A stretch of 64,000 nucleotides of DNA from Flavobacteriales bacterium (GTDB taxonomy: Bacteria > Bacteroidota > Bacteroidia > Flavobacteriales_C > GCA-002722245): positions 99,109 through 163,108 of the forward strand of contig PBLA01000003.1 in assembly GCA_002722245.1 (NCBI GenBank), written 5' to 3'. Below, one piece after another: positions 15,326 through 34,448 of this stretch. The notes below the pieces were generated by a model, which worked only from the letters and a program-made list of their open reading frames with translations, was not told the origin of the DNA and did no database searches. The translations under genes were made by a program, and so were the position numbers. The first letter of the stretch is position 1; every line of letters begins with the position of its first letter.

Positions 15326-15326
15326 T

Positions 15327-16670: not shown

Positions 16671-16823
16671 AAAACAAACTTACGGATTATAATTTTCGTT
16701 TCAACATTTCAGTTTTTAAGTAAATTACTGTCTTGGTTCCTACAATATCACCTGTTTTTCACTCTATATCGAACTCTATTTTCACTCGCTTACAACAACA
16801 AACTGCTTATGTAAAATATCTAT

Positions 16824-17195
16824 TCAATGGAAATTAAGTATTCCACTAAACGCATCCTCATAATGAGTAAGACATGAACTATCCTCGTTTAAAACTATGG
16901 CAATAATATCAAATCGAACAGGAACCTCAATATTCAAACGTTCTAAATACACGTCCGCGACCGTAATTAAATCCTTTTCCTTTTGTTCATCAACAGATTT
17001 TTCAGGAGCTCCAAATTCATCTGAAGATCGTGTTTTAACCTCAACAAAAACAACTTCTTCTCCATTATCTGCAATAATATCAACCTCCAAATGGCCCATT
17101 CTCCAATTGGAGTGATGAATTAGATAGTTTTTACTTTTTAGATACTGAATGGCGATTTTCTCTCCCTCCTCGCCAAGTAAGTTGTGCTCTGCCAT
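16824..17195 (-). CDS. yraN: YraN-family (UPF0102) endonuclease
   Basis: GEEGEKIAIQYL...GHLEVDIIA...VVFVEVKTRS pattern typical of YraN; 123 aa. Confidence 0.8.
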   Translation of the reverse strand: MAEHNLLGEEGEKIAIQYLKSKNYLIHHSNWRMGHLEVDIIADNGEEVVFVEVKTRSSDEFGAPEKSVDEQKEKDLITVADVYLERLNIEVPVRFDIIAIVLNEDSSCLTHYEDAFSGILNFH

Positions 17196-17198
17196 ACA

Positions 17199-18314
17199 TC
17201 AAGCCTTTAATTGGTAATTATTTCCTGGTAAAGCCTTTATTTTTCCACTCAGTTCTAAAGAAAATAACATGCTCGAAACTTTGTGGATAGGCTGGTTTAA
17301 CTGAAGCGCGATTTGATCCTTATTTGAAATACCGGTTTGTTGAATAATTTCTAAAATATTCTTTTCATCACCAACTTCGTTATCAAAACAAGTGAGTTGT
17401 TTAACCGTGTTTTTATTGGTGGTTTTGATCCAATTTAACGCTTTTAAAACATCCTCTCCAGACTCTACCAACGCAGCTTTATTTGATTTAATTAATTGAT
17501 TGCAACCCGCCGAAAAAACATCAATACTCCTACCAGGAACCGCTAAAACATCACGACCATATGAATGCGCAATATTTGCTGTAATAAGCGCTCCTCCTTT
17601 TTTTGTCGCCTCTACAATTAGGGTGGCGTCTGCCATTCCTGCAACAATTCTATTGCGCTTAGGGAAATTTTCGCGATCTGGATTACTTCCACTTAAAAAC
17701 TCAGTTAGCAATCCACCGTTTTGTACCATCCTTCTCGCAAGTTCTCTGTTTTTTTGAGGATAAAGCTTGTCCAGTCCATGTGCTAACACTCCTATTGTAG
17801 ACATATTGTTATCCAACGAAAATTTATGCGCATAGGCGTCAATGCCGTAAGCTAAACCACTGACTATGATGATCTTGTGATCTGCGAGATCTTCTATAAT
17901 TCTGCGCGTCACATCTTCGCCGTAAGCAGTCGCTTTTCGAGTACCCACAACAGCAAGAATTTTATTTTTATTCAAAAAGGGAGTTCCTTTAAAATACAAT
18001 ATATATGGACTATCGTTACACGACTTTAATTGCTCAGGATAGTGCTCGTCATCATAAAACCAAATCGCTATGTTATGTTTTTGAGTAAACTTAAACTCTT
18101 GATGCGCTCTTTTCAAAGCCGCCCTTTTTAATGTGGAATTACACAACGTAGAAAGCAATACTTTTCCAACCCCAGGTATGCATTCAAGGTCCTTCTCTGA
18201 TGCTTGAAATAATGCCTTAGCGCCTTTAAAATATTCCGTTAAAAGTTTTGCATATAAATGCCCTATACCGGGTAACTGAATTAATGCAATTCGATAAAAT
18301 CCTTCCTGATTCAT
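17199..18314 (-). CDS. dprA: DNA-processing protein DprA (Smf)
   Basis: Rossmann-like DprA core (VVGTRKATAYGE, SGLAYGIDAYAHKFSL, GGALITANIA). Length 371 aa. Conserved yraN adjacency. Confidence 0.85.
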   Translation of the reverse strand: MNQEGFYRIALIQLPGIGHLYAKLLTEYFKGAKALFQASEKDLECIPGVGKVLLSTLCNSTLKRAALKRAHQEFKFTQKHNIAIWFYDDEHYPEQLKSCNDSPYILYFKGTPFLNKNKILAVVGTRKATAYGEDVTRRIIEDLADHKIIIVSGLAYGIDAYAHKFSLDNNMSTIGVLAHGLDKLYPQKNRELARRMVQNGGLLTEFLSGSNPDRENFPKRNRIVAGMADATLIVEATKKGGALITANIAHSYGRDVLAVPGRSIDVFSAGCNQLIKSNKAALVESGEDVLKALNWIKTTNKNTVKQLTCFDNEVGDEKNILEIIQQTGISNKDQIALQLNQPIHKVSSMLFSLELSGKIKALPGNNYQLKA

Positions 18315-18370
18315 AACATTGGAAATTGTACGAATCTCGATTAAATCACAAATAAGAACACTTATGGCAC

Positions 18371-18401
18371 AAAAAAAGCCATTCTAACATAATGGCTTTT
18401 T
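18371..18401 (-). terminator. Rho-independent terminator downstream of thiL
   Basis: GCCATT-7 nt loop-AATGGC hairpin flanked by an A-run on + and a T-run on -, so it reads as a terminator on the minus strand after the thiL stop. Confidence 0.6.
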
Positions 18402-18432
18402 AATGCTTTGGTCATATTACTAAAAAAAATAA

Positions 18433-19473
18433 TTAATCTTTTAGCGCGTTCCAGCCTTGAGCCTCCAAAGGATGCGTAGTACCATCTTTTGCTGTTAAGT
18501 TATAACCATCTGATTCAACAACAAAGTGGCCAATGATTGTAAACATTGGATGATTTTTAATCTTTTCGTAATCTCCTAAGTCTATTGCAAAGACTAATTC
18601 ATAATCTTCACCACCATTCAATGCACACATCGTTGGATCCAAGTGGTGATCTCTAGCTCGATCAAACGTTTGTTGATCAATGGGTAATTTCTCTTCATAA
18701 ATTGACACACCTACTCCAGACTGCTTGCATAAATGAATCACTTCTGAAGACAAGCCATCGGAAATATCCATCATGGCATTGGGTTTGACACCAAGTGTTT
18801 CAAACTCTCGAATGATGTCTAAACGAGCCTCTGGCTTCAATTGTCTTTCCAAAATATAATCACAGTCCGATAAGTCGGGCTGTACGTTTGGACTCTCCTC
18901 ATATATTTGTTTCTCGCGCTCCAAAATTTGAAGCCCCATATAGGCGCCTCCCAAATCACCAGAAACAACTAGTAAGTTGGACTCTTTCACGCCGTTTCGA
19001 TAAACTAACTTTTCTTCTTTCGCTTCTCCAATGGCAGTCACAGAAATGGTTAGTCCCGAAATAGAAGATGTAGTATCACCACCAATTAAATCTACTTTAT
19101 ATAACTCACAAGCAAGATTTATTCCATCATAAATTTCTTCAACAGCCTCCAATGAAAACCGATTGGATAAGGATAGGGAAACTGTTATTTGTCGAGGCAC
19201 TGCATTCATAGCTATTATATCCGATATATTCACCATTACAGCCTTGTAGCCAAGATGTTTAAGCGGAACATAACTCAAATCAAAATGAACCCCTTCAACC
19301 AACAAATCTGTTGAAATTACAGTATGTGAATCTGAATCATATTTTAGCACAGCCGCATCATCACCAATTCCTTTTATGGTAGAAGCATTTCGAATTTGAA
19401 CCTTTTTTTTGATTAAATCAATTAGTCCAAATTCTCCTAAATCTGATAGCTCTGTTCTGTTGTCCTCACTCAT
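18433..19473 (-). CDS. thiL: Thiamine-monophosphate kinase ThiL
   Basis: AIR-synthase-related/PurM-like fold with GEFGLIDLI, GDDAAV. Start placed at the internal MSEDNRTELS rather than the longer ORF, to avoid overlapping the upstream small ORF. Confidence 0.8.
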   Translation of the reverse strand: MSEDNRTELSDLGEFGLIDLIKKKVQIRNASTIKGIGDDAAVLKYDSDSHTVISTDLLVEGVHFDLSYVPLKHLGYKAVMVNISDIIAMNAVPRQITVSLSLSNRFSLEAVEEIYDGINLACELYKVDLIGGDTTSSISGLTISVTAIGEAKEEKLVYRNGVKESNLLVVSGDLGGAYMGLQILEREKQIYEESPNVQPDLSDCDYILERQLKPEARLDIIREFETLGVKPNAMMDISDGLSSEVIHLCKQSGVGVSIYEEKLPIDQQTFDRARDHHLDPTMCALNGGEDYELVFAIDLGDYEKIKNHPMFTIIGHFVVESDGYNLTAKDGTTHPLEAQGWNALKD

Positions 19474-19489
19474 AATTATAAAATTTGAC

Positions 19490-19864
19490 TCAATGTCGAG
19501 TTTGTCGTTGCACCTGTGTTTTTTCCTCAAAAAATGCGTAATTGGGGCATGAATTGGTAAGAATATTTTGAACTTTAATTAAAATACTACCACGAATTCC
19601 CAATTTATCCAAATCCTCTTCTCTTCTTTTTTCTGTTTCAAAATTCTTGTTGATAGCCTCTTGATTTTTGACAATCGCTTTACTCAAACATTGCATTTTT
19701 AGTCCAGTTAGTGCAGTTTTGATTGTGTTTGTATCGATCATACTCAAACAAACACAAGCTGTATCTGCTACCTGTTGCTCAATGGTGTTTTGATTTTCTT
19801 TTTGAGCTTGTAGTGTAACAGCCCACAAAAAAAATCCAAGGAAGATATAGCACACTTTATACAT
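19490..19864 (-). CDS. Small hypothetical secreted protein (124 aa, 4 Cys)
   Basis: Clear signal peptide MYKVCYIFLGFFLWAVTLQAQ; no recognisable domain. Could be spurious. Confidence 0.35.
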   Translation of the reverse strand: MYKVCYIFLGFFLWAVTLQAQKENQNTIEQQVADTACVCLSMIDTNTIKTALTGLKMQCLSKAIVKNQEAINKNFETEKRREEDLDKLGIRGSILIKVQNILTNSCPNYAFFEEKTQVQRQTRH

Positions 19865-19907
19865 ACTTATAAAGTTAAACTATTTTTACACGGTAATCAT
19901 TTACAGC

Positions 19908-20531
19908 ATGGAAAACATTAAGAACATCATATTAGATTTAGGAGGAGTGCTCATAAACCTTGATTATGACAAAGTAAACGATGAACTTGGAAAATTAGGT
20001 CTTGCCAATGCATTTACAAAATCAAATCAGATCGATTTATTCGACAATTATGAAGAAGGAAAAATTAGCGAAAAAACTTTTTTAAATCGCTTCAATCAAC
20101 TAGCTGCTGTTGATCATTCCCACAATAAGATTATTCAGGCATGGAATTCAATTCTTCTCGATTTCCCGGCTGATCGATTAACTATGATAAATCAACTACG
20201 CGATAAATACAAGGTTTTTCTATACAGCAATACCAATTTTACACACATGAAGGCAGTAAATAGTATTCTCCAAAGAGAGCATAGTTTAGAAAATCTTAAT
20301 GGATATTTTGACAAGGTTTATCTTTCTCATGAACTTGGTATCAGAAAGCCAAAACCACAAGGCTTTAAACATATCCTAAAAACAAATAATTTAGTTCCTA
20401 AAGAGACCTTATTTATTGATGATAGCCCACAACATATTGAGGGAGCTATGCAAGCAGGAATTTATGCGGAATGGTTAGATTTAGAAAAAGAAGATCTTAA
20501 AGATGCATTAACTCGATTATCTCTAATTTAG
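19908..20531 (+). CDS. HAD-superfamily hydrolase, subfamily IA (YihX-like)
   Basis: Motif I IILDLGGVLINLDY (YihX-type DxG variant), motif III lysine and C-terminal FIDDS motif. Confidence 0.7.
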   Translation: MENIKNIILDLGGVLINLDYDKVNDELGKLGLANAFTKSNQIDLFDNYEEGKISEKTFLNRFNQLAAVDHSHNKIIQAWNSILLDFPADRLTMINQLRDKYKVFLYSNTNFTHMKAVNSILQREHSLENLNGYFDKVYLSHELGIRKPKPQGFKHILKTNNLVPKETLFIDDSPQHIEGAMQAGIYAEWLDLEKEDLKDALTRLSLI

Positions 20532-20535
20532 TAAT

Positions 20536-21207
20536 ATGAATTCCGTAATTATAGTAGCAGGAGGTAAAGGATTAAGAATGGGAACTAAAACTCCAAAGCA
20601 GTTTTTAGTATTAAGGTCCGAACCTGTGCTTATGCATACCATTCGTGCTTTTTACAATTGGGACAACAGTTGTGAAATTATTTTAGTACTCCCTGCGAGC
20701 CAGCAGTCTTATTGGCAAATACTACTCAATGAATATGATTTTGACATCCCTGTAAAAATCACCTCCGGAGGAGAAACAAGATTTCACTCTGTAAAAAACG
20801 GTCTTCGTCATGCATCAGGAGAACTTATTGGAATTCATGACGGTGTAAGGCCTCTGGTAAGTGAGGAAACAATTAAAAACTGTTTTAATGTTGCTAAAAA
20901 GGAAGGGAATGCAATTCCATGTCTTCCGATAAATGATTCATTAAGGGTGGTGGAAAACTCACTGAATAAGCGAGCTGATCGGTCAAAATACTTTAGAGTT
21001 CAAACGCCACAAGTTTTTAAACGAGAACTCATAATGAAAGGGTTTGAGCAAGAATTTACGGATGAATTTACGGACGATGCCTCTGTTGTTGAAAAACTAG
21101 GTGAACGAATTCAACTGGTAGAGGGAAATGAGGAAAACATTAAAATAACCCGAGCCTTCGATTTAAAAATTGCAGAGATATTTTTGGAAGAACTTCATTC
21201 TGTTTAA
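20536..21207 (+). CDS. ispD: 2-C-methyl-D-erythritol 4-phosphate cytidylyltransferase IspD
   Basis: VIIVAGGKGLRMGTKTPKQFL N-terminal nucleotidyltransferase motif; 223 aa. Confidence 0.85.
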   Translation: MNSVIIVAGGKGLRMGTKTPKQFLVLRSEPVLMHTIRAFYNWDNSCEIILVLPASQQSYWQILLNEYDFDIPVKITSGGETRFHSVKNGLRHASGELIGIHDGVRPLVSEETIKNCFNVAKKEGNAIPCLPINDSLRVVENSLNKRADRSKYFRVQTPQVFKRELIMKGFEQEFTDEFTDDASVVEKLGERIQLVEGNEENIKITRAFDLKIAEIFLEELHSV

Positions 21208-21255
21208 ATGATTTCTTTCCTTTGTTTTGTCGATAAAACATTCCCGTATAAAACC

Positions 21256-21282
21256 TAAAAAGCCCCTTCTTGGGGCTTTTTT
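21256..21282. terminator. Bidirectional rho-independent terminator between convergent ispD and asd
   Basis: AAAAA-AGCCCC-TTCTT-GGGGCT-TTTTT: a GC-rich 6-bp stem flanked by A-run and T-run. Confidence 0.7.
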
Positions 21283-21303
21283 AAGTATATTATTTCGTAC
21301 GAT

Positions 21304-22317
21304 TTACGCACTTACTTTTTGCGAAATTAAATACTCAGCAATTTGAACAGCATTTAGTGCTGCTCCTTTTCTTATCTGATCCGACACACACCAAAAAGTA
21401 ATACCATTTGGATTCGCCAAATCTTCTCTAATTCTACCCACATATACATCATCCTTACCCGCTAAGTCGTAAGGCATTGGGTATCCCAAGTTTGGTAAAT
21501 CGTCCACTACAGTGATTCCTTCTGCTGCTTCACAAGCGGCTCTGAATTCAGCTGGAGTAACTGGAGATTCTGTTTCGCACCAAATCGCTTCTGAATGAGC
21601 TCTCATTACTGGAACTCTTACACAAGTTGCTGATACCTCAACATCCGAAGACATGATCTTCTTTGTTTCGTTATACATTTTCATTTCCTCTTTAGTATAT
21701 CCATTTTCTTGGAATACATCAATATGAGGAATAACATTAAAAAGTAATTGATGGGCAAAAGCCTCAACCGTTAAATCCTTATTGTCTACAAATTGTTTCA
21801 CTTGTTCTTCTAATTCCGCCATTCCTGAAGCTCCTGCTCCAGATGCTGACTGATATGATGAAACGTGAACTCTTTTTATGTGCGATATTCCTTCTAATGC
21901 TTTTAAAGCAACAACCATTTGAATGGTTGTACAGTTTGGATTCGCAATAATGTTTCTTGGTCTATCATTTGCTGCTTCAGCATTTACTTCAGGAACAACC
22001 AATGGCACATCCTGATCCATACGAAATGCGCTTGAGTTATCAATCATGATCGCACCGTGCTTTGTAATTGTATCAGCATACTCTTTTGAAATCCCACCTC
22101 CAGCAGAAACTAATGCAATATCAATATCTTGAAAGTCATCGTTGTGTTTAAGTTCCTTTACAACTAATGTTTTTCCATTGTAGTTATATTCTTTGCCAGC
22201 ACTTCTAGCTGATCCAAATAAAACTAATTCGTCCATACCTTGTAAAGGTCTTTCAGAAAGAATGCTCAAGAACTCTTGTCCTACTGCACCGCTTGCTCCT
22301 ACGATTGCTACTTTCAT
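21304..22317 (-). CDS. asd: Aspartate-semialdehyde dehydrogenase
   Basis: [16 protein letters not shown] Rossmann N-terminus, catalytic Cys region ([10 protein letters not shown]), 337 aa. Confidence 0.9.
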
Positions 22318-22466
22318 AACTTAAAAAATAAAATTTGGAGGGCAAAAATAGTTCTTTTTATTCTGATTCACATGGATTTAACCAAGTTTTCGTTTTTTAG
22401 GAATGACTTGTTAGAAATTAAATGAAACTCCATCATAATTTTTTAATTCAAAATATTTTGGTGCTT

Positions 22467-24068
22467 ATGCGATTTATACAGCCAAAAATTCGTTTTAATC
22501 AACTTCCATGGAAGATATTGCCTTTGCTCATTTTGTTATTCTCCGACTCTTTAAACGGACAGACGATTAATCAATTTGATGTCCTTATCACTGAAGTCAT
22601 GTTTGACCCTATACCAGAGGTTGGTTTGCCAAATGATGAATACATTGAAATTTTTAATAACTCTAATCGTTCCATTTCGTTATCTGAACTTCAAATTTGT
22701 GTTGGAAAAAAACAAATTACTCCACAAGCCTATGACCTGCCTCCTGATTCGTTCTATGTCTTCTGGGACCCCATTATTCCGGCACTAAAAAATAGTGGAG
22801 ATTCAATTCGGATACTTCACAAAAACTCGTTGATTCACCGATTGGATTACAAGCCATCTATGCATTTATCAACATTTAAGTCTAACGGGGGCTGGAGTAT
22901 CGAACTGGTTGATTTTACAAAACCTTGTTTAACGAGCGGTAATTGGTTATCCAGTGAACATGATTCTGGTGGCACTCCTGGATTTACGAATAGTATGGCC
23001 TTTGAACTAAGTGTTCCTCAAGTAAAAGTAGACTCATATTTTCCTATTTCCGACACCACGCTTCTCGTTAATTTTAATGTCCCACTAACCCCATATGCAT
23101 CTGATAACATTTACCCTATTGATAAACTGGATTCCTCCTCGCTTGACTCCCTGTCAATTCATTCCATTAAAACCTGTTTCAAAAGCAACTTTAACCCTCA
23201 AACGCTTATTTATGGCCTTCCTCATATTCCCGATTCTGGAGATTTAGTTATTAATGAAATTCTATTCAATCCAGACGAATATGGTCATGACTTTATAGAA
23301 GTCTACAATACCTCTGAACATTCTTTTGACCTATCAAAATTATATTTTTCATCCAAAGATGTGAATGGTGCACTTGAAAAACCATTTGTACTTTCCACAT
23401 CTCCTCGATTAATATTACCAAGATCCTATCAGGTCTTCTGCAAAAACATAAGCTGGTTATCGGCTGTTTTTCCTCATTCTAAAAACCATATTCAAACCAA
23501 TCTACCTGCAATGAATAATGCAGGAGGCTCAGTCCTTATCGTAAATCAATCAGGTAAAGTGATTGATGAATTAAACTACAGAGAAGACTGGCACTATAAG
23601 GAACTTATTGATAATGAAAATGTTAGTTTGGAAAAAATTATTCCTACGCATTCTAACGTGCCTTCGAACTGGACATCCTGCTCATCAACAGAAAATTACG
23701 CAACCCCCGGATATGAAAACACAAATCTCCAAGCTGCATTAAAACCCGTTTCCAATTTTAACCTCGCATATGAGATTATAACACCAAATGGTGACGGATA
23801 CCAAGATCAACTGATTTTACACTATCGTTTTAACACAACTGGATGGACGGGACAAATTGACGTGCTTAATTATTCAGGGGTAACCATTCACTCACTTACG
23901 CCAAACACGCTATTTGGTCAAAATGGAAGCATCTCATGGGATGGTTTCTTTGATGATCAAACTAAAATTCCACCCGGTATCTATGCACTTTGGATCAATG
24001 CTTATCATTATCAAAATCAAGAATCTAAAAGAAAGAAAATCGTTTTTTACATTAATGGAACATTATAA
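22467..24068 (+). CDS. Lamin-tail-domain (LTD) protein with T9SS C-terminal sorting domain (type-B/CHU_C-like)
   Basis: Two LTD-like segments (DVLITEVMFDP...DEYIEIFN and LVINEILFNPDEYGHDFIEVYNTS). C-terminus ITPNGDGYQDQL...SWDG...GIYALWI resembles the type-B/CHU_C sorting domain. Start set at the internal MRFIQPK, which gives a signal peptide. Confidence 0.6.
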   Translation: MRFIQPKIRFNQLPWKILPLLILLFSDSLNGQTINQFDVLITEVMFDPIPEVGLPNDEYIEIFNNSNRSISLSELQICVGKKQITPQAYDLPPDSFYVFWDPIIPALKNSGDSIRILHKNSLIHRLDYKPSMHLSTFKSNGGWSIELVDFTKPCLTSGNWLSSEHDSGGTPGFTNSMAFELSVPQVKVDSYFPISDTTLLVNFNVPLTPYASDNIYPIDKLDSSSLDSLSIHSIKTCFKSNFNPQTLIYGLPHIPDSGDLVINEILFNPDEYGHDFIEVYNTSEHSFDLSKLYFSSKDVNGALEKPFVLSTSPRLILPRSYQVFCKNISWLSAVFPHSKNHIQTNLPAMNNAGGSVLIVNQSGKVIDELNYREDWHYKELIDNENVSLEKIIPTHSNVPSNWTSCSSTENYATPGYENTNLQAALKPVSNFNLAYEIITPNGDGYQDQLILHYRFNTTGWTGQIDVLNYSGVTIHSLTPNTLFGQNGSISWDGFFDDQTKIPPGIYALWINAYHYQNQESKRKKIVFYINGTL

Positions 24069-24248
24069 GTTTAAAGAACAGATATCATTTAAACTGATTA
24101 TTCGATCATTTCAGAGTTCTTTTCAATCAGTTGGTCAGTAATTTATTCAAAAACTCTAAATTCTTCAATAACATTGTTGCAGGTAATAAGGTAGTTTCTT
24201 ATAGTTAAGGGTTTTTAAAGGTCAAGTTTTACTTGGCCTTTATTCGTT

Positions 24249-25295
24249 TTAAGACGCCAAATAATAAGGATTCAGCGTAACGTTTGTTTTTAACTCTTCT
24301 GTTATTTTTTGTCCATTTTTAAGATTAGCTCTAAACATTAAAAACCATTGAATCTCAACGTTATCTTGCTCAAATGAACCAGGTGCATCAGTTAAGTTAA
24401 TTTGTGTTTTAAATGTATTTTTCTGCTGAACATCCCTTATTCTTCGGTATTTGGTTCGCCCTATTACTTTGTCATATACAACCCTATCGCTCCCTCTTCC
24501 ATCTGTCACCCACTCCCTTACTTCATAGTAGCAATCTAAAGAAGATATCTTACTCCAGTTTTTTTTGAGTTTTATTTTTACTTCTTGCTGATTATTTTCA
24601 ATTGATTGAGAAGAAATGTCAATTGTACCAAACGTTTTTATATCCCATTTCATGTAGGAACTGTACCCAAAGATTCCAAAAGAGAAAAAGCCAAAAACAT
24701 AAACAAAAATAGAACCCAGTAATAACCCAAAGTTCCACATTAAATAACCTATTCCAAACATCACAAGCGGGATTAATAATAACCACCAACTTAAAGATGC
24801 TTTTATTGTCTTTTTAATCGAGCTAGGAACATAGGTATACGTTTTTGGAAAAACCTTGAACCTTAATTTTCTGTCAAATTCTTGCTCGGGACTAAAGACT
24901 TTACTAACTGAAAGATTCTTTAAATACTGTTTTCTAATAAAGCTTTTAGATTTTGAAGTCAAGTCTGCATCTGTTTCTACATACCAAACAAACTGTACAT
25001 ATTTACCTTGGTAGCTTATCATATCCGAAGGGCAGAAATCAAATTCATACTCTAAAATATCACCTGCCATCCATGAATCTTTATCACTCAGCTTTTCCAG
25101 ATGAACAATCATAGGAGAGTAGTTTACAACTCCCCTAACCTCTACACATACCTTTGCATTCAGATAATTAATATCAAAATCATGTAAAATTTCTAAATAC
25201 AGTTTACACTTAACATTTGAACCATACTTATACTTATTATCAGCAGATGATAATGTTGCTTTTAAATTGATGAATTTCCCCTCTTTTTTTCCCAT
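24249..25295 (-). CDS. Hypothetical membrane protein: N-terminal soluble domain, central TM hairpin, C-terminal soluble domain
   Basis: 348 aa. Two adjacent hydrophobic helices (WWLLLIPLVMFGIGYLMWNFGLLLGSIFVYVFGFFSFGIFGY) flanked by charged soluble regions; no family recognised. Its start ATG overlaps the stop of the upstream P-loop gene. Confidence 0.5.
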   Translation of the reverse strand: MGKKEGKFINLKATLSSADNKYKYGSNVKCKLYLEILHDFDINYLNAKVCVEVRGVVNYSPMIVHLEKLSDKDSWMAGDILEYEFDFCPSDMISYQGKYVQFVWYVETDADLTSKSKSFIRKQYLKNLSVSKVFSPEQEFDRKLRFKVFPKTYTYVPSSIKKTIKASLSWWLLLIPLVMFGIGYLMWNFGLLLGSIFVYVFGFFSFGIFGYSSYMKWDIKTFGTIDISSQSIENNQQEVKIKLKKNWSKISSLDCYYEVREWVTDGRGSDRVVYDKVIGRTKYRRIRDVQQKNTFKTQINLTDAPGSFEQDNVEIQWFLMFRANLKNGQKITEELKTNVTLNPYYLAS

Positions 25296-25882
25296 TATAA
25301 TCTGAAGTATAGTTCATTTATTACACCTCGAGGATTACCTGAGTGTTTTTCACAAATTTTCATAATATTCTCATCGGAAAAAGACTCACCAAAATCACCT
25401 GTATTAAAATTCAATAAAGAAAGTTTACTATTTACTATCTCTTTTAATTCTAGAAAATTTTGTCGTCCTAGTTTTATTTTCGTTTTTGAACCTTTAAAAA
25501 TTTGTTCTAAACCATAAGTATCTATATGTGCAGAATAAATAATTATTTTACCTGATGTCCACAATTTCATTCTTTGATTTAACTTCAGGTTATACACACG
25601 ATCAATAATTAAAATTTTATAGTTTAAATTATGGGGTTCTACAACATCTCCTTTTTGGAAAGAAATATATTTACTATTATTCAGTTGAAAACTTAAAACT
25701 TGTAAAAGGGAAGTCTTCCCAACACCTTTTTTACCTTCAATACAATAAAATTGCTTTGTGTTTTTTCTAATTCCCGCTAAAAATTTAATCGTTTCCTCAT
25801 TCCAATGATAAGTCGCCGAAACTTCCTTGGGGGTTAAGTTTCCAAGAGGATTATATTCCAAATTAAATTTTCCCAATTTCAC
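25295..25882 (-). CDS. Minimal P-loop NTPase (Arch_ATPase/AAA-like), 195 aa
   Basis: Walker A GKKGVGKTS preceded by an NPxxxxTPKE-type N-terminal segment. Walker B-like YKILIIDR. Confidence 0.55.
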   Translation of the reverse strand: MKLGKFNLEYNPLGNLTPKEVSATYHWNEETIKFLAGIRKNTKQFYCIEGKKGVGKTSLLQVLSFQLNNSKYISFQKGDVVEPHNLNYKILIIDRVYNLKLNQRMKLWTSGKIIIYSAHIDTYGLEQIFKGSKTKIKLGRQNFLELKEIVNSKLSLLNFNTGDFGESFSDENIMKICEKHSGNPRGVINELYFRL

Positions 25883-25937
25883 TCTAAAATACGCAAAAAA
25901 ACAAAAATTAAACCCAAAATAAATTATTTACAAAACA

Positions 25938-27461
25938 CTAAGCTTTCAAATCCAAAATCTTTTCGGGATTCTCTTTGAGTCTTTTTAGGGTTTCATTCTT
26001 CCCTATTATTTCAGCAATCTCAAACAAAGATGGTCCTCCCCCTTTACCAGTAATGGATAGTCTTAGTGCTATCATTGCAATTCCAAAGCCTAATTCTTTT
26101 TCCTCTAAATATTTCTTGAAACTGGCCTCTAAATTATCCGCTCTAAAATCCACAATTTTATCAAAAACGGCAGCGATATCGGTAACAATTTCGGCCGAAT
26201 TATCCTTCCATTTTTTCTTTACTGTTTTGGGATCGAAAACAGTAGGTGATTCAAAAAAATATTGAGCAGATGAGTAGATATCCTTTACAAAAACAATCCT
26301 TTCCTTCATTTGCCTAACTACGCTCGATAAATTTATAGACGTTTCTATTCCACGCTTTGCTAAATCGGCACGAAGATCATGAACAATTTCATCATCAGAT
26401 TTTCTTACCAAATATTGTTGGTTATACCATTTTGCTTTATCGGGATCAAATTTAGCACCTGATTTATTTACTTTTTGAATATCAAATGTTTGAATCAGTT
26501 CACTCAAACTAAACATCTCTTGCTCAGTCCCGGGGTTCCAACCTAAAAATGCCATGATGTTCAGAAAAGCCTCTGGATAATAACCTTCCTCTCTATATCC
26601 TTTAGAAATATCACCCGTTTGTTGATCTTTCCATTCTAATGGAAAAACAGGAAACCCTCCTGCATCACCATCCCTTTTGCTTAACTTTCCTTTTCCCGTT
26701 GGCTTTAACAAAAGGGGTAAATGAGCAAATTTTGGGGAGTTCCAACCAAATGCCTCGTAAATAGCAACATGCAGTGGTGCTGATGGCAACCACTCTTCTC
26801 CTCTAATTACATGACTGATTTCCATTAAATGGTCATCAACAATGTTCGCTAAATGATAAGTAGGCATTCCATCACTTTTGAAAATGATTTTATCATCTAA
26901 TTCCGATGAATTAAAACGCACTTCTCCACGTACCATATCATCCACCACAATGATATTATCTGGTTCTATCTTAAAACGCACGGTATACGGTACATCTTTA
27001 TTTAGTAAATTTTGAACTTCATCATCAGAAAGTACAAGTGAATTTCGCATGGAATCGCGTGTAGAAAAATCGTATTTAAAATTCTTCTTTTCTTTTTCAA
27101 ACGCTACTCGTTTAACGTGTAATTCATCTGAGGTGTCAAATGCGTAATACGCTTTACCATCATCGATCAATTGTTGTGAATATTTTAAATAAATATCCTT
27201 TCTTTCTGATTGTTTGTAAGGACCAAAAGGCCCTCCCTTGTGAACGCCTTCATCAAAATCAAATCCACACCATTTTATACTTTCAATAATATATTGTTCT
27301 GCCCCTTCTACAAACCTTTTTTCATCAGTATCTTCAATTCTTAATACCACATCTCCTCCTAATTTCTTCGCAAATAAATAATTATACAAAGCTGTGCGGA
27401 TTCCTCCAACATGTTGAGGACCTGTTGGGCTTGGTGCATATCGAACTCTAACTTTTGACAT
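25938..27461 (-). CDS. gltX: Glutamate--tRNA ligase
   Basis: Class I HIGH region (RYAPSPTGPQHVGGIRTALYNY) and KMSKS-like KLSKR; 507 aa. Confidence 0.9.
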   Translation of the reverse strand: MSKVRVRYAPSPTGPQHVGGIRTALYNYLFAKKLGGDVVLRIEDTDEKRFVEGAEQYIIESIKWCGFDFDEGVHKGGPFGPYKQSERKDIYLKYSQQLIDDGKAYYAFDTSDELHVKRVAFEKEKKNFKYDFSTRDSMRNSLVLSDDEVQNLLNKDVPYTVRFKIEPDNIIVVDDMVRGEVRFNSSELDDKIIFKSDGMPTYHLANIVDDHLMEISHVIRGEEWLPSAPLHVAIYEAFGWNSPKFAHLPLLLKPTGKGKLSKRDGDAGGFPVFPLEWKDQQTGDISKGYREEGYYPEAFLNIMAFLGWNPGTEQEMFSLSELIQTFDIQKVNKSGAKFDPDKAKWYNQQYLVRKSDDEIVHDLRADLAKRGIETSINLSSVVRQMKERIVFVKDIYSSAQYFFESPTVFDPKTVKKKWKDNSAEIVTDIAAVFDKIVDFRADNLEASFKKYLEEKELGFGIAMIALRLSITGKGGGPSLFEIAEIIGKNETLKRLKENPEKILDLKA

Positions 27462-27603
27462 TTTAAACTCTTTTGAGCTACAAATATAATCTTAAACCTT
27501 AAAATGCCTGTAGCGTATGATTGTTTACTTAAATTTGTTTTTGATTAGCTTCATTATGCACAACATTTTATAAGTTAAAACGTTCTATCTCTTTTATTCG
27601 ATT

Positions 27604-28311
27604 ATGAAAAAATATTTAGTGGCTTTGTTCCTTTTTCAGTTTGCACTGTGTGGATTTTGTCAATATGATTTTGACAATACAGATGACTCTGATTACAACG
27701 ATGATTCCGATTTTGTGGATGATTTTGAAATCACCTACGATTCTAGCTATTCTGACCAATTAAATCAAGCTAATGAACTTAAGGGTTATGCTTTTGAAAT
27801 TTTAGGAACATCCTCATTTAATATACACCCTGATGGCATTTTTCCGTTTGTTGGATTAGGTCTTAATGTCCGTTACAATTATTATACACCAACGAACTTT
27901 GTGAGTCTATCCATTGGATCACCATTAAATATAGGTTTACAAATTTATTCAACTTCTTTTTCAGAACCTGAAACATGGTACTTTAACGATATTCCGCTGG
28001 AACTCTGTTTAAATTTAGGTGCAAGAGCAACAAAAGATGCTGATTATCTATTTGGAGCTTTTTTTGGCGGTGGTTTCAACTACAATTACTCATACATGAA
28101 GAATCCTGTTGGAAATGAGTTAAGTGCCCACACAGCTGGACCGCATATTTCATTTGGTATTCGATATAAATATTGGGGAAGACCTGTTGGTGTTAGAGTA
28201 AGTTACATGTGGGGTGTATTAAATAATTTTAAAGAAGATCCCTTTATTATTTATGAAAATTCTACCGCTCCTAAAATTTTAAATTTAAGTTTTTCTTACA
28301 GTGTTAATTAA
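27604..28311 (+). CDS. Hypothetical secreted protein (acidic N-terminal stretch, beta-rich; possible outer-membrane protein)
   Basis: Signal peptide MKKYLVALFLFQFALCGFC, D-rich N-terminus, Gly/aromatic-rich beta-like body. Its stop abuts the TTG start of the next gene. Confidence 0.4.
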   Translation: MKKYLVALFLFQFALCGFCQYDFDNTDDSDYNDDSDFVDDFEITYDSSYSDQLNQANELKGYAFEILGTSSFNIHPDGIFPFVGLGLNVRYNYYTPTNFVSLSIGSPLNIGLQIYSTSFSEPETWYFNDIPLELCLNLGARATKDADYLFGAFFGGGFNYNYSYMKNPVGNELSAHTAGPHISFGIRYKYWGRPVGVRVSYMWGVLNNFKEDPFIIYENSTAPKILNLSFSYSVN

Positions 28312-31300
28312 TTGAAAACAAACGATTTAAATAATATTCATTCAAATTTAAATGCCTTTATAAGAAGATATTATCTTCGTGATATATATAAAGGATTCAT
28401 AATCACTTTTAGTGGTGGGATTTCTTTACTTACTTTGTTTGCTGTTGCAGAATACTTTTTTCGATTCAGTTCAAACGCCCGTTTATTTTTACTGGTTTCA
28501 TTTACACTTATTTTCCTAATTTCATTTTTTCGATTTTTAGCGCTCCCTTTTCTTCGTTTTTTAGGCATCATTCATAAAATTTCTGAAGAACAGGCATCTA
28601 AACTAATTGGAAAGTATTTCACAGACGTAAATGATCAATTAACCAACCTTTTACAACTAGAGAAAAGCGAGTCAAATGAATTAACTCTTGCTAGTATTGA
28701 TCAAAAAGCAAAAAAAATAGCACCGTTTGAATTTAAAAAAGCGGTTTCCTTTCGAGATGTTTTTAAAATGGTCAAATGGTCTTTCATACCTCTTGCCGTT
28801 GTGATGATAATAAGCCTTTGGAATGCAAAAATAATTACTAAAGGAACAGAAAGAATCGTAAACTTTAATCAAACATTTGTTCCAGAAAACCCATACAAAT
28901 TTAAGATTGTAAACACTCATTTTTCCGTTTTACGTAACGATCAATATACCTTCCAAATTGAATTTACTGGAGAGAAAGTTCCACATGATGTTTACATTAT
29001 TGAAAATAATAAACAGTATAGATTTTCAAAGAAAAGCATGTCGGTTTTTGAATTTGTGTTTAGAAATGTTCAAAAGCCACTTCGTTTTCAAGTTAACACA
29101 GGAGGTTATTTAAGTAACTATTTTCAATTAAACCTTATTGAAAAACCTGCTATTTCTAATTTTAGTGTAGCGTTAAATTTTCCTGCTTACACAAAAAAGA
29201 AAAGAAAAGTACTTCACAATAATGGAGATCTTTTTATTCCAGAGGGAACAGAAATTAAATGGCTATTAAAATCTCATTTTGTTGACCAGGTCATATTTAC
29301 AATAAATGATTCTCTATCATCTCTATCACCTGTGGAAAATCGCATTATTTTTAAAACACAAGCTTTATCCTCTTTTAATTACAGCATAACACCAAAAAAT
29401 ACAGATGGAATACTAGGTGATAAAATGGATTATTCTGTGAACGTTATTAAAGATAATTATCCTCAAATAAAAGTGAAGAATATTCAAGACTCCATACATC
29501 CTTTCTTTCTTTTTCACTCTGGACTTATCGCTGATGATTATGGTTTTAAATCTTTACGTTTCTGTTTTCAAAATAATGACACAAGTGGTTTTATACCTAT
29601 TCCAGTTCCAACAACTGAATTTCAATACAGTTTTAATCATGGGATAAATATCAAAGAACTCGGATTTGAAGCTGGTAGCAATTTTTCTTATTATTTTGAA
29701 GTATTTGATAACGATGCTGTAAATGGTTCAAAATCAACTAAAAGTACATTACAATCATATGATATCCCGTCAAAAAAAGATATCGAAGAATTATTGGCAA
29801 ATAACCGTAAATCAATCAAAAATCAATTGGATCAAAATATGAACGAAGTACAAAATCTTCAAAAAGAATATGAAGATCTTCAAAAAATGATGTCCTCCAA
29901 GAAAAAGATGGACTGGCAAGACAAAGCGAGGCTTGAGCAATTTATGAACCATCAAAATCAATTAAAAAATCAATTAGAACAGCTGCAATTCGATCAAGAA
30001 AAAAATAACTATCAAAAAGATCAGCTCTCCCCACTGGAAGAGACTATTCTCAAAAAGCAGGAACAAATTAATAAGCTCTTTGAAGAATTAATGGACGAAG
30101 AAACAAAAAAGCTCTTCGAAGAATTAGAAAAATTATTAGAAAATTTTCAAGAAGAAAAAATTAAAGAAACTCTCGAAGAAATGAATCTAAGTAACGAGGC
30201 ATTAGAAAAAGAACTGGACAGAACGCTAGAAATGTTTAAACAATTGGAGTTCGATCAAAAACTTGAAGAAACGATTGAAAAACTTGATCAATTAGCTAAA
30301 AAGCAAGAAGAGGCCTCCGAAGAAACCCGTGAGAATAAAGAATTAACAAAAGAAGAACTTCAGGAAAAACAAAAAAACATCAATAAGGAATTTGAGGAAA
30401 TACAACATAATATTGAAGAACTGCAACAGCAAAATGAAGAGTTGGAATATAAACGCAATTTTGAACGTTCGCAAGATCAACAAGAAGAGATAAAACAAGA
30501 CCAACAAAAAAGTGAAGAAGAAATTCAAAACAACAACACAAAAAAGGCTTCCAAAAGTCAAAAAAACGCTGCAGAAAAAATGAAAAAATTATCTGAACAG
30601 ATGAAAAAAATGCAACAAGACCAAAAAATGGAACAGCAAATGGAGGACATGAATAGTTTACGACAAATACTTGAAAATCTTATCTCGCTCTCTGTTGAAC
30701 AAGAAGATTTAATGAAAAAAATAAAAACTACGAACAGATTTGATCCTCGTTTTCCAGTATTAGCAACCACACAAGGTAATTTAAAAGAAAGTGCTAAAAT
30801 TATAGAGGATTCACTGCTTGCTCTTTCTAAAAGACAAATTAGCCTCCAAACCATCGTGAACAAAGAAATACTAGATATTAAATACAATATGGATAAATCG
30901 ATTGACTTTTTAAGGGAAAGAAAAAATTATAATGCCGCTATGAAGCAACAATACGTTATGACAGCAGCCAATAATCTTGCCCTCTTATTAGATGAATCCC
31001 TCCAACAAATGCAAGAACAAATGCGAAAGCAACAAGGTGGTGGAAACTGCACTAAACCAGGAGGAGCTCAACCTAAACCAGGATCCATACAAAACATCAA
31101 ACAAATGCAAAAACAACTTTCTGAACAAATGCAAAAAATGATGAAAGAATTGCAAAATGGTAAAAAACCAGGTAAGCAAGGAAAAAATGGCAAAAATGGA
31201 TTAGCCAAATCACTTGCGCAAATGGCTGCACAGCAAAATGCCATAAAAGAACAACTAAAGAAGCTTCAGGAGGAAAATAAGAAACAAGGTGGAGGCCTTG

Positions 31301-31623
31301 GTGATTTAAAAAGTTTACTGGATCAGCTCGATCAAAACGAACGTGACATACTCAATAAAAATATTTCCAGAGAAACCATTTTACGTCAGCAAGAGATAAT
31401 GAGTAAACTCTTAAAAGCTGAAAATGCGCAAAGAGAAAGAGAATTAGATAAAAAAAGAATCTCGAAAAAAGGGATAAATACATTTAAACGTAACCCTGAA
31501 GATTTTTCATCGTATGAGACCTTCGAGTTAAAAGAAAAGGAAGCTATTAAAACTATTCCGTCATCTTTTAATTTGTATTATAAGAAGAAAATAAGCGAAT
31601 ATTTTAATAAATTTGACGAATAA
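28312..31623 (+). CDS. Large membrane-anchored protein with ~600-aa Q/E/K-rich coiled-coil region (DUF4175-like)
   Basis: Two N-terminal TM helices, a ~450-aa beta-rich region, then an extended low-complexity coiled coil (EELEKLLENFQEEKIKETLEEMN..., QQ/KK runs). TTG start. Confidence 0.5.
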   Translation: MKTNDLNNIHSNLNAFIRRYYLRDIYKGFIITFSGGISLLTLFAVAEYFFRFSSNARLFLLVSFTLIFLISFFRFLALPFLRFLGIIHKISEEQASKLIGKYFTDVNDQLTNLLQLEKSESNELTLASIDQKAKKIAPFEFKKAVSFRDVFKMVKWSFIPLAVVMIISLWNAKIITKGTERIVNFNQTFVPENPYKFKIVNTHFSVLRNDQYTFQIEFTGEKVPHDVYIIENNKQYRFSKKSMSVFEFVFRNVQKPLRFQVNTGGYLSNYFQLNLIEKPAISNFSVALNFPAYTKKKRKVLHNNGDLFIPEGTEIKWLLKSHFVDQVIFTINDSLSSLSPVENRIIFKTQALSSFNYSITPKNTDGILGDKMDYSVNVIKDNYPQIKVKNIQDSIHPFFLFHSGLIADDYGFKSLRFCFQNNDTSGFIPIPVPTTEFQYSFNHGINIKELGFEAGSNFSYYFEVFDNDAVNGSKSTKSTLQSYDIPSKKDIEELLANNRKSIKNQLDQNMNEVQNLQKEYEDLQKMMSSKKKMDWQDKARLEQFMNHQNQLKNQLEQLQFDQEKNNYQKDQLSPLEETILKKQEQINKLFEELMDEETKKLFEELEKLLENFQEEKIKETLEEMNLSNEALEKELDRTLEMFKQLEFDQKLEETIEKLDQLAKKQEEASEETRENKELTKEELQEKQKNINKEFEEIQHNIEELQQQNEELEYKRNFERSQDQQEEIKQDQQKSEEEIQNNNTKKASKSQKNAAEKMKKLSEQMKKMQQDQKMEQQMEDMNSLRQILENLISLSVEQEDLMKKIKTTNRFDPRFPVLATTQGNLKESAKIIEDSLLALSKRQISLQTIVNKEILDIKYNMDKSIDFLRERKNYNAAMKQQYVMTAANNLALLLDESLQQMQEQMRKQQGGGNCTKPGGAQPKPGSIQNIKQMQKQLSEQMQKMMKELQNGKKPGKQGKNGKNGLAKSLAQMAAQQNAIKEQLKKLQEENKKQGGGLGDLKSLLDQLDQNERDILNKNISRETILRQQEIMSKLLKAENAQRERELDKKRISKKGINTFKRNPEDFSSYETFELKEKEAIKTIPSSFNLYYKKKISEYFNKFDE

Positions 31624-31635
31624 CCGAATACAACA

Positions 31636-32079
31636 ATGGGGCAAAAACTATCTTTTCCTTCAAAGGCTGAAAACCTTAACCAAGTTGAAGTTTTAATAAA
31701 CAGTGTATGTGAAGACTTTGAGGTTAATGAGGATTACTACGGAAACATTTTAATTGCTTTAACAGAAGCGGTGAATAATGCAATACATCACGGTAATAAA
31801 TCAAATCCTGAGAAACAAGTCAAACTTAGTTTTGATGCAGCAGATACAATATTAAAATTTACAATTGAGGATGAAGGTGCAGGTTTTGATTTTAATAATC
31901 TACCTGATCCCACTGACCCTCAGAATATTGAAAAACCACATGGTAGAGGTGTTTTTTTAATGAGAAACCTCTGCGATGATCTAGAATTTGAAGAGGATGG
32001 TGCTAAGGTTATTATGAGTTTCAATATTAATGATGATTTATTAAAGCAAGTTCAAAAAGAAAAAGAAGAAGAAGTTTAA
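31636..32079 (+). CDS. GHKL-type ATP-binding protein, anti-sigma-factor/RsbW-like (HATPase_c_2)
   Basis: ALTEAVNNAIHHGN (N-box), IEDEGAGFDF (G1) and GRGVFLMRNLCDDLEF (G2-like); 147 aa. Confidence 0.65.
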   Translation: MGQKLSFPSKAENLNQVEVLINSVCEDFEVNEDYYGNILIALTEAVNNAIHHGNKSNPEKQVKLSFDAADTILKFTIEDEGAGFDFNNLPDPTDPQNIEKPHGRGVFLMRNLCDDLEFEEDGAKVIMSFNINDDLLKQVQKEKEEEV

Positions 32080-32516
32080 TGAAAACACCTCGTGAAGTCC
32101 ACTTCGATTTTCACAGCGAAGACATACAATTTAATTTAGATAAAAAGCCGGCGATCATTAGCTGGCTTTCTTTTTCCATAAACCAAGAAGGTAAATTACC
32201 TGGTGAACTATCTTACATATTTTGTTCCGATGATTTTTTACTTAACTTGAATAAAAAATACCTCAATCATCATACCTTGACTGATATTATTACATTTGAT
32301 TATTGTGAGAATAATATTATAAATGGTGAAATGTTTATTAGTATTGATCGCATAAGTGAAAACGCACATGAATTTGGCGTATCATTCATAGATGAACTTC
32401 ATCGAGTAATGGTTCATGGTGTTCTTCATCTATGTGGATTTAAAGATAAAACACCTGAGGACCAAAAAGTTATGAGCATGAAAGAGGATTTTTACCTAAA
32501 TTTGCGCAACTTTTAA
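32079..32516 (+). CDS. ybeY: rRNA maturation endoribonuclease YbeY
   Basis: HRVMVHGVLHLCGFKD zinc-site region; 145 aa; start overlaps the upstream stop (ATGA). Confidence 0.85.
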   Translation: MKTPREVHFDFHSEDIQFNLDKKPAIISWLSFSINQEGKLPGELSYIFCSDDFLLNLNKKYLNHHTLTDIITFDYCENNIINGEMFISIDRISENAHEFGVSFIDELHRVMVHGVLHLCGFKDKTPEDQKVMSMKEDFYLNLRNF

Positions 32517-32528
32517 TAAATATAATCA

Positions 32529-34400: not shown

Positions 34401-34403
34401 TAT

Positions 34404-34448
34404 TGTTCCACGTGGAACATGTAAATTAATGATGTTCCACGTGGAACA
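34404..34448. promoter_or_regulatory. Two identical perfect 16-bp palindromes, 29 bp start-to-start, abutting the downstream start codon (putative operator pair)
   Basis: Each palindrome is its own reverse complement, which indicates a dimeric DNA-binding-protein site. Confidence 0.5.

Follow-up and report, generated by a model that had tools for sequence, protein, structure and literature searches.

A minimal AAA+-like NTPase and an arrestin-clan protein with a transmembrane hairpin form a stably inherited operon in marine Bacteroidota

In a 64,000-nucleotide stretch of DNA from a Flavobacteriales bacterium (GenBank assembly GCA_002722245.1, contig PBLA01000003.1, positions 99,109 to 163,108 of the forward strand; the whole stretch is called the window), two overlapping minus-strand genes at 24249-25882 encode a small nucleoside triphosphatase (NTPase) and a membrane protein. 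We find that the first is a minimal AAA+-like NTPase, predicted to comprise a base that binds nucleotide and a lid of helices, with no other domain, and that the second is a two-lobed protein of the arrestin clan in which the hinge between the lobes is replaced by a transmembrane hairpin. Together they make up an obligate, ancient, chromosomal and vertically inherited two-gene operon of marine Bacteroidota. We suggest that the pair works as a nucleotide-gated, membrane-anchored adaptor of the arrestin type, a tentative reading to which we give a probability of about 0.45.

Results

The two genes overlap and occur together

Genes 1 and 2, as given by the open reading frame (ORF) list and the raw sequence, are arranged as follows.

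25295..25882, minus strand: gene 1, encoding the NTPase, 195 amino acids, GTG start
24249..25295, minus strand: gene 2, encoding the transmembrane-hairpin protein (arrestin-TM), 348 amino acids
25293..25297, minus strand: TAATG stop/start overlap of genes 1 and 2, with base 25295 common to both

An earlier reading of the window, made from the letters alone (the sequence-only reading), had described two minus-strand ORFs with a shared junction at 25295. They are present, and the TAATG overlap indicates translational coupling of the two genes, as that reading also held. It had further taken them for a genuine coupled module, a small P-loop NTPase with a transmembrane-hairpin protein, outside the named systems. 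This reading is supported. A scan of 185,579 GTDB species genomes with a gene 2 sub-alignment, a pattern that matches 21 of 71 representatives of the family, yielded 20 loci from Saprospiraceae, Lewinella, Dokdonia, Kordia, Tenacibaculum (one complete genome) and unclassified Bacteroidota. With a local hidden Markov model, the NTPase gene was found directly upstream of gene 2 and on the same strand in every locus that had upstream DNA. The reverse test, seeded with the NTPase on metagenome contigs, gave 11 loci, and the arrestin-TM gene came next in all 10 that had downstream DNA. The two genes are adjacent and linked in 34 of 34 testable loci. Their junction, where it could be scored, is ATGA in 14 loci and TAATG in 8, and nearly all of the others lie within 20 nucleotides.

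There are variations on this arrangement. Gene 2 is duplicated in tandem behind a single NTPase gene in loci L004 (6976-9032), L028 (1283-3339), L010 (4828-7005), L012 (5944-8081) and L022 (5905-7909). The extra copies in L010 (4828-5934) and L012 (7008-8081) have diverged and have lost the C-lobe signature described below. The window has no second copy. The NTPase frame is split in L035 (4980-5569) and truncated in L036 (1184-1762), each time with an intact arrestin-TM gene downstream; this damage could be a frameshift, a pseudogene or an assembly error.

Gene 2 encodes an arrestin-clan protein

An exhaustive profile search for gene 2 found 116 clusters at 50% identity, nearly all of 320-355 amino acids and matched from end to end. 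Family counts below are based on the 71 of these clusters that were aligned. In the window, the protein is divided as follows (AF2, AlphaFold2).

24801..25295, minus strand: N-lobe, residues 1 to ~165, an arrestin-N/Vps26-like beta-sandwich with the motifs E52-x-R54-G55 and S-Y95-x-G97
24651..24794, minus strand: transmembrane helical hairpin, ~residues 168-215, from AF2 helices 170-188 and 192-215 and from hydropathy
24261..24644, minus strand: C-lobe, ~residues 218-345, an arrestin-C-like beta-sandwich
24486..24515, minus strand: beta-hairpin turn of the C-lobe with the family signature E-x-V-x-D-x-R-G-T-S, here E261 W V T D265 G R267 G268 S D

This is the layout given in the sequence-only reading, a soluble domain, two tightly packed transmembrane helices and a second soluble domain. 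The lengths it gave need correction, to about 165 residues instead of 185 for the N-domain and about 130 instead of 115 for the C-domain. It had also called both soluble domains unrecognizable; both turn out to be arrestin-like lobes, by Pfam, by profile searches of PDB and by the match of one lobe to the other. The window protein by itself has no match in Pfam, NCBIfam or PADLOC. Searched member by member, the family matches Arrestin_N and Vps26 in 16 of 71 members each (best E = 7.4e-7 and 7.6e-7, respectively) and Arrestin_C in 4 of 71 (best 3.3e-5). Against PDB sequences, the family profile finds TXNIP (8.8e-7), Vps26A/B (3e-6 to 3e-4) and, on the C-lobe at profile positions 282-334, ARRDC3 (0.02). 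The structure of the bacterial arrestin-clan protein Spo0M, 5cl2, is a weak match (0.066), and none of the 71 members matches the Spo0M Pfam model at E <= 0.01.

The N-lobe and C-lobe sub-alignments match each other in hhalign with a probability of 82% (E = 1.1e-5), and RG...SYxGxN...W of the N-lobe is in register with RGTS...P.S...I.W of the C-lobe. Judged by this alignment, the lobes share a common origin, the internal duplication that is typical of arrestins. The AF2 prediction has the same order of parts, all-beta, two long helices, all-beta, at a mean predicted local distance difference test (pLDDT) score of 50.1. Like the model of gene 1, it was built on a shallow alignment of 5-6 sequences and is of low confidence.

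A hydrophobic hairpin is found in 68 of the 71 members, with a connecting loop of 7 amino acids (median). These ~48 residues take the place of the short flexible hinge of arrestins, and in this respect the protein is not a soluble arrestin. The hairpin is the least conserved region, with a mean column identity of 0.20 vs 0.31 and 0.37 in the lobes. In the C-lobe, Y-x-[IV]-x-E-x-V-x-D-x-R-G-T-S is near-invariant (E261 99%, D265 94%, R267 92%, G268 93%) and is kept in nearly all loci; E-x-R-G of the N-lobe parallels it. No N-terminal signal peptide was found in the family. Because there is no signal peptide and the loop between the helices is very short, both lobes probably face the cytoplasm at the inner membrane, which is the compartment of the NTPase, with the hairpin as their anchor.

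Gene 1 encodes a minimal AAA+-like NTPase

The motifs of gene 1 were located with an alignment of 22 family members from the loci.

25838..25852, minus strand: N-terminal motif NPLGN (family consensus [FY]NP[FL]xG), with N11 and P12 invariant in the 22 sequences
25712..25735, minus strand: Walker A GKKGVGKT, residues 50-57, with G53, G55 and K56 invariant
25598..25615, minus strand: Walker B-like ILIIDR, residues 90-95, with D94 invariant
25325..25339, minus strand: GNPRG, residues 182-186 (GDxYRG in the family), with R185 invariant, at the start of the last lid helix in the AF2 model

R104 is also invariant, as is H119, which closes a sensor-1-like strand (IYTTH/IYSAH). The Walker A motif GKKGVGKTS and a Walker B-like motif with Arg after the Asp had been pointed out from the letters alone, and both are present. 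In the 22 sequences, the Walker B Asp is followed by Arg within the window's clade and by Ser in all others, and never by Glu, so the family departs from the hhhhDE pattern that defines AAA+ proteins with a catalytic Glu. Because this Glu is missing, hydrolysis is probably slow, and the protein may be a switch rather than a motor.

The AF2 model (pLDDT 61.6) has a beta-alpha-beta core followed by four C-terminal helices. With this low-confidence model, nearly all Foldseek matches are AAA+ proteins aligned over the whole length (E ~1e-3, TM-score ~0.35), among them RFC1, MuB, RuvB, ClpC, Mg-chelatase and spastin. Pfam matches of family members are weak and mixed (AAA_22, AAA_16, NACHT, AAA_14, ORC-CDC6-like and nSTAND3), and one member matches the Cdc6-ORC-like lid of Pfam at 1.2e-3. 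The lids of Cdc6, RFC, DnaA and RuvB carry a sensor 2 motif, and G-[ND]-x-R at the start of the last helix of gene 1 could be its equivalent, by analogy of position. Matches of the gene 1 profile to PDB (mS29/DAP3 at 0.011, ABC-F, FtsY and PezT) are centered on Walker A, and we discarded them as P-loop noise. In Pfam, NCBIfam and PADLOC, the window protein has P-loop matches only, below threshold. The absence of the usual C-terminal extensions, which the sequence-only reading had remarked on, is real. Gene 1 ends at residue 195, right after the lid, with no C-terminal arm or sensor domains, and we therefore rejected an assignment to the STAND NTPases.

The family is rare and, as sampled, limited to Bacteroidota

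As sampled, the pair is restricted to Bacteroidota, in lineages of Flavobacteriales and Saprospiraceae. Many gene 2 clusters are metagenome-derived singletons among 15 billion proteins. By rough extrapolation, the number of sequenced species with the family would be no more than tens to low hundreds. Because it is so rare, the module is accessory, not core, though it is stably inherited where present.

The pair is inherited vertically at a fixed site

Word-indexed homologue searches found 5-6 close relatives of each protein, in marine metagenomes or a Flavobacteriales metagenome-assembled genome, and a repeat search with the 71-sequence alignment added only one, P0090. Loci L001, L004, L006 and L007 have a common gene order with the window: gidA, ybeY, a gene for a 147-residue HATPase-like protein, genes for proteins of 1101 and 229 residues, gltX, the NTPase gene, the arrestin-TM gene, an LTD/CHU_C gene, asd, ispD and a HAD gene. 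The presence of the pair at the gltX locus in related genomes, one of the checks proposed with the sequence-only reading, was confirmed in 4 of 4 long contigs of relatives. On these contigs, identity to the window protein is as follows.

asd, 92-94%
gltX, 77-79%
ispD, 71-75%
1103-amino-acid protein, 58-70%
LTD/CHU_C protein, 50-54%
NTPase, 53-59%
arrestin-TM, 52-54%, and 70% for one paralogue in L004

The common gene order and these identities indicate that the pair was inherited vertically at this site. To judge from the identities, it evolves at the pace of the other non-housekeeping genes of the region.

The position of the pair is fixed within each lineage and differs between lineages. Five Tenacibaculum species have cyclase and HemN-like genes downstream and YjbR and DUF4230 genes upstream, and two Dokdonia species have both flanks of the pair in common. 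Between the DUF4230 gene and the NTPase gene of Tenacibaculum (L017, L019, L022, L024 and L026) there is a variable stretch of 0-4 genes, with an M20 peptidase, a YARHG protein, an AraC regulator, a PEBP protein and, in L022 and L026, ORFs without a Pfam match.

In the window, gltX lies 55 nucleotides upstream of gene 1 on the same strand, and a gene for an LTD/CHU_C-type protein converges on gene 2 from the downstream side; these are the flanks, gltX and a type IX secretion system (T9SS) cargo gene, that the sequence-only reading had named. A search for a terminator-like site between gltX and gene 1 found none. As for a Bacteroidetes-type promoter, the 55-nucleotide gap shows no clean TAnnTTTG by eye, a sigma-70 scan gave no more than the shuffled expectation, and we rejected this candidate. 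Beyond gene 2 there is one further feature.

24216..24242, no strand assigned: hairpin with a 12-bp stem, directly after the gene 2 stop codon and between the convergent genes (z = -2.4)

The hairpin is likely a bidirectional terminator of the operon; its T-rich side is that of the plus strand only.

Two neighboring groups of genes merit description. The convergent gene (22422-24068, plus strand) encodes a 548-residue protein with an N-terminal signal-like segment. Its relatives have Pfam matches to LTD and weak matches to CHU_C (T9SS type-B sorting). The protein is fast-evolving (50-54% identity), and in L001 there are two ORFs in place of one. On the other side, divergent from gltX, is a conserved pair of plus-strand genes without Pfam matches (27604-28311 and 28312-31623), which encode proteins of 235 and 1103 residues. 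Hydrophobic segments lie at the N-terminus, and a very long coiled-coil region is rich in K/E/Q, with an AT skew of up to 0.48. These two genes are syntenic in L001, L004, L006 and L007 at 45-70% identity and are followed by a gene for a 147-residue HATPase_c_2-like protein, ybeY and gidA.

Composition and context are not those of a mobile or defense island

The sequence-only reading had placed the pair in an AT-rich island. Composition computed per gene for the 47 ORFs of the window does not support this. Gene 2 has an ordinary GC content (0.321, rank 14 of 47; 0.292 at third codon positions (GC3) vs a window mean of 0.273). Gene 1 has the lowest GC content in the window (0.279, GC3 0.199) at a z of only -1.8, and the next genes are at 0.282-0.287. 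The remark that no integrase flanks the pair was correct. The description of the island as compositionally atypical was not, as GC and GC3 fall inside the window distribution. Both observations that the same reading had named as counting against itself were made: the pair is at this locus throughout the lineage, and its GC content is normal. A tRNA scan of 15000-35000, about 10 kb on each side of the pair, found none, and the only flanking direct repeats are chance AT-rich ones. With near-normal composition, no tRNA, no meaningful repeats and the same site in four related long contigs, we rejected a genomic island.

We examined 148 pooled proteins within 4 kb on either side of the pair at 23 loci, and 30 neighbors individually, a small sample. 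By Pfam, the neighbors are metabolic and housekeeping proteins (among them radical SAM/HemN, cyclase, M20 peptidase, AraC regulators, LigA, MiaB-like enzyme, glutamate dehydrogenase, RuvC, thiolase, YaaA, 7TM-HD and E1 dehydrogenase). PADLOC gave strong matches for one of the 148 proteins, a PifA-like NTPase of 702 residues in L024 (8809-10914, minus strand; 6.6e-65). Its gene is 1.9 kb from the pair, past the conserved cyclase and HemN-like genes. It is inserted beside the HemN-like gene in this one Tenacibaculum species, and L017, L019 and L026 lack it at the corresponding site. The enrichment near defense genes that the sequence-only reading had proposed to look for was therefore not found; with a known defense gene in 1 of 23 neighborhoods, these are not defense islands. 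In PADLOC-DB 2.0, the arrestin-TM protein has no match, and the NTPase family has matches of P-loop level (E >= 8.5e-6 for single members, in no consistent family). Homologues of the pair were absent from 50,697 phage records, 72,556 plasmids and 2.9 M viral contigs, and we rejected a phage- or plasmid-borne origin. No integrases or transposases were found in the neighborhoods examined.

Discussion

Proposed function of the pair

We postulate that the NTPase is a slowly hydrolyzing ATP switch or loader, of the type of ORC/Cdc6, DnaC, clamp loaders and MuB, and not an unfoldase. It would attach to the cytoplasmic lobes of its partner, with which it is co-translated in stoichiometric amounts, and set their conformation or state of oligomerization. 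The state of the lobes would in turn govern whether they bind a client, which is probably a membrane protein recognized through its cytoplasmic portion, by analogy with arrestin, alpha-arrestin and Vps26 proteins in eukaryotes. The most promising sites for contact with the NTPase or client, or for a latch between the lobes that resembles the polar core of arrestins, are E-x-V-x-D-x-RGTS of the C-lobe and E-x-RG of the N-lobe. The residues that could form such a core are E52-x-R54-G55 in the N-lobe and E261, D265 and R267 in the C-lobe; the gene 2 model is too poor for placing them.

Several observations weigh against this adaptor model. The pLDDT scores of the two models (61.6 and 50.1) are too low to settle the packing of the lobes, an interface or the AAA+ clade of gene 1, which is below every curated gathering score of Pfam and NCBIfam. 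The topology, with cytoplasmic lobes and the hairpin as an anchor, is deduced from the absent signal peptide and the short loop. No third gene family recurs across the 23 neighborhoods beyond synteny at the level of the lineage. In addition, the family is rare and fast-evolving: its 116 clusters at 50% identity include many singletons, and the branches are 15-25% identical to each other. Gene 2 has also been tandemly duplicated repeatedly. Rarity, fast evolution and duplication would also fit conflict systems.

Phage defense is the alternative to which these last traits lead. The NTPase would sense infection, and the transmembrane-hairpin protein would oligomerize and damage the membrane, causing abortive infection. 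A small NTPase with a tightly coupled membrane protein is a common layout among defense pairs, and the family is not only rare and fast-evolving but patchy, with tandem duplicates of gene 2 in L004/L028, L010, L012 and L022. Databases of defense systems are incomplete, and Tenacibaculum has both the variable stretch just upstream of the pair and, in L024, the PifA-like gene. However, the syntenic position is fixed within lineages and the composition is normal. A convincing defense match occurs in 1 of 23 neighborhoods, the others being housekeeping or metabolic, and there are no integrases, transposases or tRNA genes and no copies in phages, plasmids or viral contigs. PADLOC matches are at P-loop noise level or absent. 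The presumed effector, the transmembrane hairpin, is the least conserved part of the protein, and the invariant motif is in the cytoplasmic lobes. We consider defense, which the sequence-only reading had favored, unsupported by these data and unlikely. We prefer an adaptor because conservation sits in the cytoplasmic lobes and not in the membrane segment, because the context is neither mobile nor defensive, and because arrestin-clan proteins are generally membrane-proximal adaptors.

A more specific form of the adaptor model is that the pair acts in quality control or regulated proteolysis, with the anchored arrestin handing client proteins over to a membrane-bound protease, for example FtsH, and the NTPase in the role of chaperone or release factor. 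Spo0M has been linked to FtsH. Arrestin-clan proteins generally serve as adaptors for membrane proteins, both lobes are probably cytoplasmic, and Spo0M is also linked to cell-division proteins (PMC5325327). Nevertheless, the 23 neighborhoods contain no protease gene or recurrent partner, the NTPase has neither the N-domains of an unfoldase nor a Walker B Glu, and the sequence of gene 2 is nearer to alpha-arrestins and Vps26 than to Spo0M. We regard this form as improbable, and rank it below defense.

Two other alternatives are much less probable. Co-transcription with glutamyl-tRNA synthetase could make the pair a housekeeping accessory tied to translation. In the window's clade, gltX is always followed by the pair, 5-100 nucleotides on and in the same orientation, and no terminator-like site lies between them. 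In contrast, gltX is adjacent in none of the 20 genome-derived loci of other lineages (L008-L027), where the neighbors vary by lineage, and the family is far too rare for a general housekeeping factor. We rejected a functional link to gltX as the adjacency is lineage-specific, and think this explanation very improbable. Least probable of all is a selfish module of the toxin-antitoxin or addiction type, in which a toxin resembling P-loop kinases would be paired with a membrane protein. It would fit the small cassette of two overlapping genes and a weak profile match to the zeta toxin PezT (E = 0.0024), but that match does not rise above noise, no sign of mobility was seen, and the pair is passed on stably and in synteny. 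Proteins of 195 and 348 residues with a conserved multi-domain architecture are also unlike typical toxin-antitoxin pairs.

Relation to known systems

The best profile matches of gene 2 are the eukaryotic alpha-arrestins (TXNIP, ARRDC3 and the yeast ARTs) and Vps26 of retromer and retriever. Like gene 2, they have two homologous beta-sandwich lobes, and both groups are expected at the cytoplasmic face of a membrane. Alpha-arrestins and Vps26 are soluble proteins with a short flexible hinge that are recruited to the membrane, whereas gene 2 has a transmembrane hairpin as its hinge and would be permanently anchored. They have no counterpart of the dedicated, co-translated AAA+-like partner, and ExVxDxRGTS of the C-lobe is specific to the gene 2 family. 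In gene 2, PY motifs, motifs for clathrin or AP2 and features for binding Vps35 are not evident, though no search aimed at them was made. Spo0M is a single arrestin-like domain with an extension, and we know of no NTPase linked to it. It is soluble and without a transmembrane hairpin (PF07070, structure 5cl2), in contrast to the hairpin-anchored gene 2 protein.

Gene 1 differs from the AAA+ switches and loaders (Orc1/Cdc6, DnaA/Hda, DnaC/IstB, clamp-loader subunits of RFC, MuB/TnsC and RuvB) in having only 195 residues and no DNA-binding or accessory domain. Its Walker B motif is D-[S/R] where theirs is D-E, its matches are below curated thresholds, and its partner is a membrane protein rather than DNA or a clamp. 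In comparison with STAND/NACHT-type and other defense NTPases (Avs, PifA, PtuA and KAP), gene 1 lacks winged-helix, helical-arm, sensor-repeat and effector domains and the context of a defense island.

In Alvarez 2008 (PMC2515105), Spo0M represents the prokaryotes in the arrestin clan; it is reported there from Firmicutes, Actinobacteria, Cyanobacteria, Proteobacteria and haloarchaea, and Bacteroidota are missing from the list. The function of Spo0M is still unclear (PMC5325327). A structural survey from 2026 found no prokaryotic proteins similar to VPS26C (PMC13392464). In the openly searchable full text, which excludes subscription-only literature, we found no description of arrestins anchored in bacterial membranes, of operons that join an arrestin to an ATPase, or of a part for arrestin-like proteins in phage defense. 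Within that literature, the module is previously undescribed.

Significance

A small ATPase, a transmembrane protein and a low GC content are, as a pattern, insufficient for calling a defense island. What the locus does provide are names and diagnostic motifs for two families that are now annotated as hypothetical. Arrestin-fold proteins of eukaryotes are central adaptors in membrane-protein traffic and signaling, and in prokaryotes only the soluble Spo0M has been described. The locus defines a second bacterial family of the arrestin clan, with two lobes, a hairpin in place of the hinge and an obligate minimal AAA+-like partner.

A bolder claim is that this is the first bacterial two-lobed, permanently membrane-anchored arrestin with its own AAA+ switch, and hence a prokaryotic adaptor that serves membrane proteins under the control of ATP and represents a new type of system. 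We find this doubtful as it stands, yet worth stating. In that case, the ExVxDxRGTS hairpin might even lend residues in trans to the ATPase site, which has no Glu of its own, as a built-in activator. If it is true, the nearness of gene 2 to alpha-arrestins and Vps26 rather than to Spo0M would bear on the origin of the eukaryotic arrestin and Vps26 adaptors. If the adaptor model is true, the pair would offer a simple two-protein bacterial system for nucleotide gating of an arrestin-type scaffold, and an extra data point on the evolutionary origin of the arrestin clan.

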